A DNA stretch of 64,000 bases from Candidatus Nanohalarchaeota archaeon (GCA_017610385.1 JAFCCC010000001.1:64001-128000); one strand, 5' to 3'. Positions 3,127 to 62,693 are shown, counted from the stretch's first letter. Notes: generated by a model from the letters alone, not told the origin. Program-made: numbers and translations.

Positions 3127-3376
3127 GGGGTTGTAGTTTAATCCGGCAGAATATTCGGCTCCAGATAACAGCTAGCTTAGTTAACATGCTCAACGAGTTG
3201 CGGGCAACTCACTTCACTTCGACGTTTAATTTTGCTTGAATTGGGAATGCATTAATTTCCGATTTAGGAAACTTAACAAGTTTCCGTGAGCTTTTATTTG
3301 AAAAGCTCATCCGAGCGCTCGGACTTTCTGGTTTTGGAGAAACCGAAGGATCTGGGTTCAAATCCCAGCGACCCCA
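3127..3376 (+). tRNA. tRNA-Trp(CCA) with intron at 37/38
   Basis: Acceptor GGGGTTG/CGACCCC+A; anticodon stem TTCGG/CCGAA with CT-CCA-G; T-arm CTGGG-TTCAAAT-CCCAG; exons 3127-3164 and 3342-3376. Confidence 0.92.
3165..3341 (+). other. 177-nt tRNA-Trp intron carrying a multi-hairpin element
   Basis: Interrupts the anticodon loop after position 37; intron 3' end TTTGGAG can pair with exon CTCCA (BHB-like); several internal hairpins. Confidence 0.8.
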
Positions 3377-3418: not shown

Positions 3419-4534
3419 ATGACAAAAATGATCGTCACGCCATGGACTGTTGAAGGAGACATAAACTATGAACGGTTGATTAAAGAGTTTGGAATTCAAC
3501 CACTTAGAAAATTACCAGATGTTTTTGAAAAAAATGTTTTGTATAGAAGACGTGTCGTTTTTGCACACAGAGATTTTGACAAAATTATAAGGGCGATTGA
3601 TCAAAAGAAAAAGGTCGTAATGATGACTGGTCTAATGCCTTCTGGAAAATTTCATTTGGGACATATGTTGCTTGCACAGCAATTTGTTTTTTATCAGAAA
3701 CTAGGAGTTAAATTGTATATTGCAGTGGCAGATCTTGAGGCATATAATGCCCGCCAAAAAACAACAGAAGAATTAAGGGAGATTGCAATTGATCAGTATT
3801 TATTAAATTATATTGCATTGGGATTAAAACCAGAAAATGTCGATTTTTATTTTCAAAGTGAAAGAAGTAAGGACGCAAAAAAATCAAATGCATTTTATTC
3901 TTTAGCAGGCAAATTTGCGCGTTATGCTACGTTTAATGAATTTAAAGGAGTTTATGGAGAAATTACGCCAGGAAAGATGTCTTCATCTCTTTTACAAGCA
4001 GCAGATATGTATCATCCACAATTAAAAGAGTTTGAGGGTCCAAATACTTTCACTTTTATTCCTGTTGGAATCGATCAAGACCCACACATAAGATTAGCGA
4101 GAGGAATGGCAAATAGAATGAAAGATTACACTTTTACTTCAATTGCTTCAACATATCATACTTTTCTTCCTGCACTAAATGGGAAAGGAAAAATGTCCAG
4201 TTCAAAGGAATCCTCTTTTATTGCGATGACAGATGATGAAAAAACTGTTGAAAACAAAATCAAAAAATACGCATTTTCTGGAGGCAGAACCACTGTGAAA
4301 GAACACAGAGAAAAAGGCGGTAATCCAGATAAAGATGTTTCCTTTCAATATTTGAAAATGTTCTTTGAACCAAATGATAAAAAATTAGAAAATATTTATA
4401 ACTCGTATAGCTCCGGAGAAATGTTGAGTGGAGAATTAAAACAGATCCTAATTGAAAAAATAAATGCGTTTTTGAAGGCGCACCAAAAAAACAGAGAAAA
4501 AAGCAAAAAGCTACTTGATAAGTTTATTTATTAG
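3419..4534 (+). CDS. trpS: Tryptophan--tRNA ligase
   Basis: VTPWTVEG, TGLMPSGKFHLGH (HIGH), PVGIDQDPH, KMSSS, KKYAFSGGR. Confidence 0.95.
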   Translation: MTKMIVTPWTVEGDINYERLIKEFGIQPLRKLPDVFEKNVLYRRRVVFAHRDFDKIIRAIDQKKKVVMMTGLMPSGKFHLGHMLLAQQFVFYQKLGVKLYIAVADLEAYNARQKTTEELREIAIDQYLLNYIALGLKPENVDFYFQSERSKDAKKSNAFYSLAGKFARYATFNEFKGVYGEITPGKMSSSLLQAADMYHPQLKEFEGPNTFTFIPVGIDQDPHIRLARGMANRMKDYTFTSIASTYHTFLPALNGKGKMSSSKESSFIAMTDDEKTVENKIKKYAFSGGRTTVKEHREKGGNPDKDVSFQYLKMFFEPNDKKLENIYNSYSSGEMLSGELKQILIEKINAFLKAHQKNREKSKKLLDKFIY

Positions 4535-62334: not shown

Positions 62335-62371
62335 AAATCTTTTTTGAATAGGAAGATTTAAATTTGTGGAT

Positions 62372-62654
62372 GTCCGAGCGCTCGGATGCCTGCAAAATCA
62401 GGCAGCACTTTAGGCCGCACTCAATTCGTGAGGCAACCTTCACAAAAATAACCGCGAAACCGGTTAATTGATTAACGTGATTGGGCTAACTTAACATTAA
62501 ATTATATTTTCCGGTCAAGTTAATCGCCGCGGTGCGCTACACGCACTTCATTAGGCAGCCCTCACCTAACTATGCTAAAAAGTGAAGTGAGTTAACATTC
62601 AGTTAACTCGCTGTTGGTGCCAGCTGGCATTTCAGCTGTCCGACTATTCGGATG
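62372..62654 (-). ncRNA. Unclassified multi-hairpin element related to the tRNA-Trp intron (ncRNA or non-autonomous mobile element; strand set by analogy to the intron)
   Basis: GC-richer than flanks; bounded by GTCCGA-NNNN-TCGGATG hairpins; exact 14-nt and 17-nt reverse-complement matches to 3206-3219 and 3308-3324. Confidence 0.55.
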
Positions 62655-62693
62655 GAATAGGTTATAAAACTAAAAAAGAAAGATAATTTGGAA

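Follow-up and report, generated by a model that had tools for sequence, protein, structure and literature searches.

Hairpin modules of a lineage-specific repeat stock in a tRNA-Trp intron and in the nac/polD spacer of a Candidatus Nanohalarchaeota archaeon

Why should the intron of an archaeal tRNA gene share sequence with a spacer between two protein genes, and is the shared sequence an RNA family or repeated DNA? The question is raised by a stretch of 64,000 nt (hereafter the window) from a Candidatus Nanohalarchaeota archaeon (GCA_017610385.1, JAFCCC010000001.1:64001-128000), in which a sequence-only reading had noticed two exact blocks in the same order at two loci, one inside a tRNA-Trp intron and one described as a free-standing copy. 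The blocks were confirmed by reading the sequence: block 1 (AACTCACTTCACTT) occupies 3206-3219, with its second copy at 62593-62580 of the minus strand, and block 2 (CATCCGAGCGCTCGGAC) occupies 3308-3324, with the second copy at 62388-62372, again of the minus strand. The middles between them do differ (gaps of 88 nt in the intron and 191 nt in the spacer copy), and ACAGCT is indeed close to the 5' end in both copies. Two interpretations had been put forward, i.e., a structured non-coding RNA (ncRNA) family, or a small mobile element sheltering in a tRNA intron. We propose that both loci are probably different mosaics drawn from one lineage-specific stock of short hairpin modules, which would have been copied as DNA into non-coding safe havens.

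The first locus comprises a split tRNA gene and trpS, with the following features (all coordinates without a contig name are those of the window):

3127-3164, plus strand: 5' exon of tRNA-Trp(CCA), ending at G37 (ARAGORN with introns; sequence read).
3165-3341, plus strand: 177-nt intron at the canonical 37/38 position, with a bulge-helix-bulge (ARAGORN; by eye).
3167-3220, plus strand: degenerate F+M1 cassette, with the M1 hairpin and block 1 (covariance model R1, 19.6 bits).
3229-3310, plus strand: 82-nt three-hairpin module, ending in the TGAGCTTTT...AAAAGCTCA hairpin (BLAST).
3310-3323, no strand assigned: palindrome P, TCCGAGCGCTCGGA, with the trpS start 95 nt further downstream (found at 15 exact sites genome-wide).
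3342-3376, plus strand: 3' exon of tRNA-Trp (ARAGORN with introns).
3419-4534, plus strand: trpS, tryptophan--tRNA ligase (Pfam tRNA-synt_1b; NCBIfam TIGR00233).

In intron mode ARAGORN called a tRNA-Trp(CCA) gene with a 177-nt intron at 3127-3376; default ARAGORN called no tRNA in the whole window. By eye, CTCC at 3160-3163 pairs with GGAG at 3336-3339, with bulges AGA and AAA, so that the canonical archaeal bulge-helix-bulge is present at the 37/38 site, with two 3-nt bulges and a 4-bp helix between them, and the exon ends, also inspected by eye, give the anticodon stem TTCGG/CCGAA and the mature anticodon loop CUCCAGA. The ARAGORN call and the bulge-helix-bulge thus uphold the intron bounds first claimed (3165-3341). 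The interior of the intron is made up, in this order, of the F+M1 cassette, the 82-nt module and palindrome P, and the repeat modules occupy most of it. The tRNA-Trp gene is located 42 nt upstream of trpS, the gene of its cognate synthetase, which scored 273.9 bits with TIGR00233 against a cut-off of 176.75. Relatives of this TrpRS were found at 26 metagenome loci (approximately ten at 68-75% identity), none of which has a tRNA-Trp upstream, an R1 match or a BLAST match to the modules.

The euryarchaeal tRNA-Trp intron nests a box C/D guide RNA (PMC4090602 and PMC3326292). The intron studied here resembles that intron in gene, canonical position, unusual length and the likelihood of forming a circle. 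However, a regex search of 3165-3341 detected neither a C box (RUGAUGA) nor a D box (CUGA), and the content of the 177-nt intron is repeat modules; the absence of both boxes sets it apart from the box C/D-bearing intron of Euryarchaeota. A box C/D guide RNA was rejected on the same ground, and snoRNA-like Rfam matches lay far below gathering. The intron also has no run of five or more T. Since the tRNA-Trp introns of Sulfolobus and Haloferax persist as stable circles once excised (PMC3326292), circularisation of the excised intron is plausible by analogy. At gathering thresholds Rfam 15 gave 0 matches in the whole 64-kb window, and in E-value mode the two loci and a second tRNA-Trp gene of the genome gave sub-threshold noise only, i.e., no Rfam family matched either locus. 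The free copy is not SRP RNA or RNase P RNA, because both genes map elsewhere in the genome.

The host genome of the window is archaeal, 788 kb in 18 contigs and 93.5% complete, and is the sole member of its family among 70 species genomes of the phylum; searches at the level of order, class and phylum all covered these same 70 genomes, i.e., 69 others. BLAST searches with both loci and a self-comparison of the genome revealed a network of short dispersed repeats, which on inspection are chains of small hairpins joined via a recurring linker, TTTTSGCTTRAG. Repeat DNA at four or more copies amounts to 4,119 bp, of which ORFs take up 0.8% and tRNA genes, through their introns, 9.7%; a further 31% is no more than 300 nt from a tRNA gene, and the remaining spacers account for 58%. 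Six contig ends (C3:1-148, C6:1-114, C9:1-176, C9:42443-42590, C12:1-232 and C11:176194-176421) stop within repeat arrays, so the assembly breaks there and true copy numbers are uncertain. A virus or plasmid origin of the repeats was rejected, as phage and plasmid collections and two viral-contig scans gave 0 matches to them. A pattern scan of genome contigs gave at least 120 single-match loci, which is the chance level for 16 fixed bases in 596 Gb, and no description of such a hairpin-repeat family was found in the main texts of the literature searched.

Seen against this network, the two blocks have different weight. Block 2, with up to three mismatches allowed, had 4 matches in the window (2 sites, both strands), whereas 100 shuffles led to an expectation of 0.01. 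For block 1 by itself the count is not significant there (2 matches versus 0.85 expected, 19 of 100 shuffles reaching at least 2), and this block gains meaning only at the scale of the genome. All four hairpins that had been tied to the blocks are present, but the second pair consists of two different repeat modules: the TGAGCTTTT...AAAAGCTCA hairpin has 14 sites in the genome and the TGCCTG...CAGGCA hairpin has 5, so that the apparently kept pairing just reflects the abutment of both on the same palindrome.

Block 1 is the 3' edge of the F+M1 cassette, which is built of hairpin F (CAGCTG-N6-CAGCTG), a linker GCACCAA, hairpin M1 (CAGC-GAGTT[variable tip]AACTC-AC) and a final TTCAC. The exact M1 pattern, CAGCGAGTT-N3-18-AACTCAC, occurs 18 times in the host genome and 0 times in 40 relatives (reversed control, 0). 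A covariance model of the cassette (R1), built from six full copies, found 28 matches at E<=1 in the host genome and 2 marginal ones (E about 0.06) in the 69 other genomes; further copies, which the sequence-only reading had proposed to look for, are thus numerous by BLAST as well as by covariance model. The intron copy is a weak one (19.6 bits, E 0.008 to 0.054 depending on the search), with its M1 hairpin GAGTTG-CGGG-CAACTC at 3195-3210.

Other introns of the genome carry the same material. All four long tRNA introns (151, 167, 177 and 276 nt) hold repeat modules. A second tRNA-Trp(CCA) gene (C17:23520-23757) has a 167-nt intron, a different acceptor stem and a bulge-helix-bulge that seems relaxed (CTCC/GAAG); its intron holds F+M1 in the leader orientation, opposite to that in the window's intron. 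The genes for tRNA-Pro(GGG) (C9:7021-7373, 276-nt intron) and tRNA-Pro(CGG) (C12:15892-16114, 151-nt intron) have the same hairpin modules, and the tRNA-Pro(GGG) intron has T runs of 5 in the tRNA sense. The 82-nt module had 7 further BLAST matches in the genome at 92.7-97.6% identity and in both orientations; one lies in the 276-nt tRNA-Pro(GGG) intron, and four are no further than 111 nt from a contig end, so the assembly may have broken a single physical copy into some of these.

The pairing of the cassette is conserved. In the R1 alignment (30 matches), 95.7% of the cells are paired versus 78.7% in shuffles and 23-39% in slid controls, with changes on both sides in 10 of 12 pairs, in an alignment that is fitted to the structure, includes weak matches and consists of paralogues from a single genome. 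Even so, the changes at the variable M1 tip (GC, AT, AAC/GTT and more) are clearly compensatory. Eight cassettes end exactly at a tRNA 5' end, on the strand opposite to the orientation first adopted for the shared sequence (the tRNAs behind them were recognised in five cases by the Rfam tRNA model, in one by ARAGORN only, and in two as 5' halves by eye); these eight end at tRNA position -1 in the tRNA sense, as a structured pre-tRNA leader would. One particular strand folds better in 18 of 19 cassettes and this is the tRNA sense in all eight tRNA-abutting ones (by 1.5-10.5 kcal/mol), an asymmetry that is due in part to one strand being rich in G+T. In four of the abutting copies there are six non-standard pairs that become G.U in the tRNA sense but read as A.C or C.A on the opposite strand; one exception was seen by eye, a G.T in the reverse direction in the tRNA-Arg copy. 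Together, covariation and tRNA-sense folding suggest an RNA-level function, at least for the tRNA-leader copies.

The cassettes might accordingly be taken as functional RNA parts of pre-tRNAs, i.e., structured 5' leaders or signals for processing that end exactly at tRNA +1 and are kept alike by concerted evolution, with the intron and spacer copies being displaced or exapted leaders. An analogous hairpin, GAAAATCTYTGATTTTC, beside or inside tRNA genes across the phylum would fit such a role, as would the covarying pairs. Yet a cassette stands upstream of only about 7 of the 39 host tRNA genes, the rest having ordinary AT-rich upstream regions, as do 30 tRNAs from three relatives. Neither locus of the window shows the leader arrangement: the intron cassette is reversed and lies in the worse-folding orientation as RNA, and the nac/polD spacer has no tRNA. 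With the covariation alignment being model-fitted and the strand asymmetry partly compositional, we consider the leader explanation a real possibility, though an unlikely one, and continue with copying of modules as DNA as the preferred reading.

Two other hairpin types are associated with tRNA genes. The 'A' hairpin has 20 sites in the host genome and 1 site in one of the 69 other genomes. Hairpin modules of 'A' type lie directly 3' of seven tRNAs (C3:26186, C3:27012, C6:4296, C9:100, C9:12789, C11:122145 and C11:176181), each with a run of five or more T in the tRNA sense (7/7), and such T-run hairpins would be suitable as archaeal terminators. Hairpin GAAAATCTYTGATTTTC occurs in 40 of the 70 phylum genomes (control pattern, 0; host site, C9:9514-9530). 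Among 30 of its loci, no tRNA was called at 16; of the others, 3 are in called tRNA introns, 3 are 15-23 nt upstream of a tRNA, 7 follow a called tRNA at 34-169 nt (some of them right before the T-arm, as judged by eye) and 1 is remote from all tRNAs. The hairpin often comes after a UGAUGA-like or GGUUGA run. The GAAAATC hairpin was rejected as a conserved ORF start: 15 of 17 loci give a start, 14 of the frames are only 11-42 codons long, and the remaining frame of 110 codons has an N-terminus that is not conserved.

The second locus, the supposed free-standing copy, turned out to be a complete intergenic spacer:

62335-62687, no strand assigned: divergent spacer of 353 nt between nac (minus) and the gene of the polD large subunit DP2 (plus) (ORFs; Pfam NAC, PolC_DP2_N).
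62373-62386, no strand assigned: palindrome P, 38 nt ahead of the start codon of nac (pattern search).
62387-62404, minus strand: TGCCTG-ATTTTG-CAGGCA hairpin module abutting P (5 genome sites).
62405-62578, minus strand: spacer middle with further hairpin modules (BLAST).
62579-62640, minus strand: full F+M1 cassette (F hairpin, GCACCAA, M1, block 1; R1, 82 bits), with F hairpin CAGCTG-N6-CAGCTG at 62621-62638.
62639-62652, no strand assigned: P-like palindrome TCCGAATAGTCGGA, 35 nt before the TTG of polD DP2 and 41 nt before the next ATG.

Since P and the P-like site bracket it, the free copy is the entire divergent nac/polD promoter spacer. Modules of its middle are shared with five other loci (C3:41.7k, C8:45.8k, C10:10.2k, C11:129.6k and C13:146.6k). 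Among 17 cassettes tested, five have F-M1 followed by P within 450 nt in the same order, i.e., both loci of the window and those at C3:41.7k, C13:146.6k and C11:129.6k; their middles are unrelated or partly shared, and a protein gene starts 38-95 nt past P in 5/5. F-M1...P is therefore a real recurring architecture, which resembles a spacer unit that is used repeatedly more than it does an RNA gene.

The core of block 2 is the 14-nt palindrome P, of the pattern TCCGA-N4-TCGGA. Exact P has 15 sites in the host genome; of the 69 other genomes three have it, all from a single different family, with 1, 2 and 4 sites (control, 0). When any central four bases or one mismatch were accepted (P-like), the host has 23 sites, 11 of which are 30-48 nt upstream of a start codon versus 9.5% of random intergenic 14-mers, and a TATA-like run usually follows P directly. 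P-like sites elsewhere in the genome include C3:41996, C8:45928, C6:13804, C13:135005, C17:8402 and C14:25777. In the relative G011, 2 of the 4 P sites are 40-45 nt upstream of starts; the sites in two GC-rich genomes of family f3 are mostly inside ORFs, so only G011 is informative on the conservation of P. P is also found inside the gene of the PolD small subunit (DP1), approximately 190-220 nt in, both in the host (C13:133335-133348) and in G011 (C2:19891-19904), a genome of another family in which this DP1-internal P is beside orc1/cdc6. Genes behind P encode a DNA ligase, an HhH-GPD glycosylase, PolD DP2, a KaiC/RadB-like ATPase and an OB-fold protein, as well as NAC, a THUMP protein and transporters. 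From these positions P is most likely a promoter-proximal protein-binding site, and the gene set may be a regulon with P as its candidate operator. In the intron, at 95 nt from trpS, P is outside its usual distance from start codons. A gene for a Crp-like HTH regulator (C11:123776-124576) has a P-like palindrome, TCCGAGTACTCGGA, 61 nt upstream; this regulator was rejected as the P binder, as the query found none in the 69 other genomes, including G011, which has P.

These results bear on the ncRNA interpretation, in its fuller form a discrete structured family of about 180-330 nt with conserved ends, F-M1 at the 5' side and the palindrome hairpin at the 3' side, one member of which sits in the tRNA-Trp intron and is released as a circle. 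The five loci with F-M1 then P and variable middles have the appearance of such a family, both sequences fold far better than shuffles (z-score -5.0 for the whole pre-tRNA-Trp and -5.1 for the spacer), and there are the circular tRNA-Trp introns of Sulfolobus and Haloferax (PMC3326292). But the opposite strand of the spacer folds nearly as well (z-score -4.4), the presumed 3' end is a palindrome that, at 11 of its 23 sites, keeps a fixed distance to a start codon, with a second one bracketing the 5' side, and the blocks are independent modules of 15-28 copies each. The cassette does not keep one orientation, either between the two tRNA-Trp introns or with respect to the tRNA leaders, no Rfam family matches, and the 69 related genomes contribute just the 2 marginal R1 matches. 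The intron and the free copy are not a two-member RNA family, and a discrete ncRNA family in the fuller form is very improbable.

The placement of P allows another explanation, in which the elements act only as DNA, as sites of regulators or chromatin proteins or as terminator or insulator hairpins in a compact genome, and their repetition reflects shared regulation, not mobility. P-like sites are indeed placed where BRE/TATA-proximal operators sit (in G011 as well as in the host), several of the genes behind P act on DNA, as listed above, and the 'A'-type hairpins 3' of seven tRNAs have their T runs in the tRNA sense. This explanation leaves the compensatory M1 stem tips, the tandem arrays and the intron copies unaccounted for, and with the query used the Crp-like regulator was not found in the 69 other genomes, G011 included; we judge this explanation improbable.

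We therefore return to the mosaic reading, in which modules would be copied and reshuffled at the DNA level and would persist only where they are harmless, i.e., in tRNA introns, from which bulge-helix-bulge splicing would remove them, in tRNA flanks and in promoter spacers. The tRNA-Trp intron is a canonical one, the interior of which would have been filled by three module pieces, one of them (F+M1) elsewhere usually placed directly against tRNA 5' ends and another (P) normally just upstream of the TATA region. The copy numbers, positions, orientations, conserved pairing and lineage restriction given above are observations; from them we infer copying at the DNA level and a passenger status of the intron copies, DNA-level copying being the best explanation of a cassette that occurs in both orientations relative to the host transcript. 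Mobility is judged here from paralogues within the host genome only, because no close relative holds the locus, and the high identity among copies could be concerted evolution of functional elements, not selfish spread.

As for the means of copying, we would favour exchange between shared linkers and hairpins, by recombination or gene conversion, over transposition. Between the paralogous spacers on C3 and C13 one hairpin module is inserted, flanked by two copies of another hairpin, and tandem 61-nt arrays are present; both would fit unequal recombination or gene conversion. Searches of the 93.5%-complete genome gave 0 matches to the Y1 transposase (PF01797) and no TnpB above cut-off (one TnpB-like match was sub-threshold), and no terminal inverted repeats or target-site duplications were seen by eye at module borders. 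Mobilisation of the REP/RAYT or IS200/IS605 kind was rejected on these results, which do not support a MITE class either, and the check for IS or transposase ends was likewise negative. The genome has three tyrosine recombinase genes (4 matches, two in one 489-aa frame), to which the repeats could not be linked. None of the outcomes named in advance as refuting the sequence-only reading was obtained, as there was no Rfam family or IS end, further copies are many and the pairs covary. The earlier suggestion of a small mobile element sheltering in a tRNA intron is close to our reading.

Bacterial REP, BIME and REPIN sequences are short imperfect palindromes, extragenic and lineage-specific, that form variable mosaics and tandem arrays. 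The palindromic units described here are likewise mosaic and extragenic (the 0.8% of repeat bases in ORFs). They differ in their archaeal host, in having no RAYT/Y1 transposase found, in the strong association with tRNA genes and introns, and in comprising several unrelated hairpin types joined by a common linker.

Closer parallels come from archaeal tRNA introns, the origin of whose sequence is an open question on which the host repeats bear. The review PMC4090602 (2014) gives the mechanism of archaeal tRNA intron transposition as unknown and a length range of 11-129 nt, compared with the 151-276 nt of the host introns, and a 2026 preprint (10.64898/2026.10.13.758758) did not find a general donor route for the introns of Asgard archaea. 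In Thermoproteales, intron sequence is shared among tRNA genes and DNA-level spread is suspected (Fujishima et al. 2010, as related in PMC4090602 and 10.64898/2026.10.13.758758). Like those intron families, the near-identical 82-nt module is present in introns of different isotypes, tRNA-Trp and tRNA-Pro(GGG); unlike them, modules and not whole introns are shared here, and the modules are commoner outside tRNA genes (leaders, trailers and promoter spacers). In Caldiarchaeum subterraneum, a tRNA-Thr intron was gained through an integrating mobile element of 1.8 kb that encodes a recombinase (PMC3293823); there too the disruption of a tRNA gene is tied to DNA repeated elsewhere in the genome, but the host pieces are 20-100 nt and non-coding. 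Within what these sources cover, the nearest described phenomenon is the tRNA intron sharing of Thermoproteales, from which the present case departs in that sub-intron modules are shared and that most of them lie outside tRNA genes.

A bolder proposal would combine the RNA and DNA properties: F-M1...P units as portable gene-boundary cassettes, with one end serving as a tRNA leader and the opposite end as a promoter operator, mobile as DNA and capturable inside tRNA genes. We hold this to be rather unlikely. If true, the genome would show archaeal tRNA introns growing or arising from intergenic repeats, the tRNA-Trp intron would carry a working trpS promoter element, and a 177-nt circular RNA with the same protein-binding hairpins would be released. 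Irrespective of that proposal, P is a candidate promoter operator ahead of several DNA replication and repair genes, in a type of genome with almost no known regulation. The source of unusually long archaeal tRNA intron sequence may be visible here, as the repeats that fill the introns are also free in spacers of the same genome; donor and recipient sequences can both be seen, so the direction and mechanism of copying are testable with population data.
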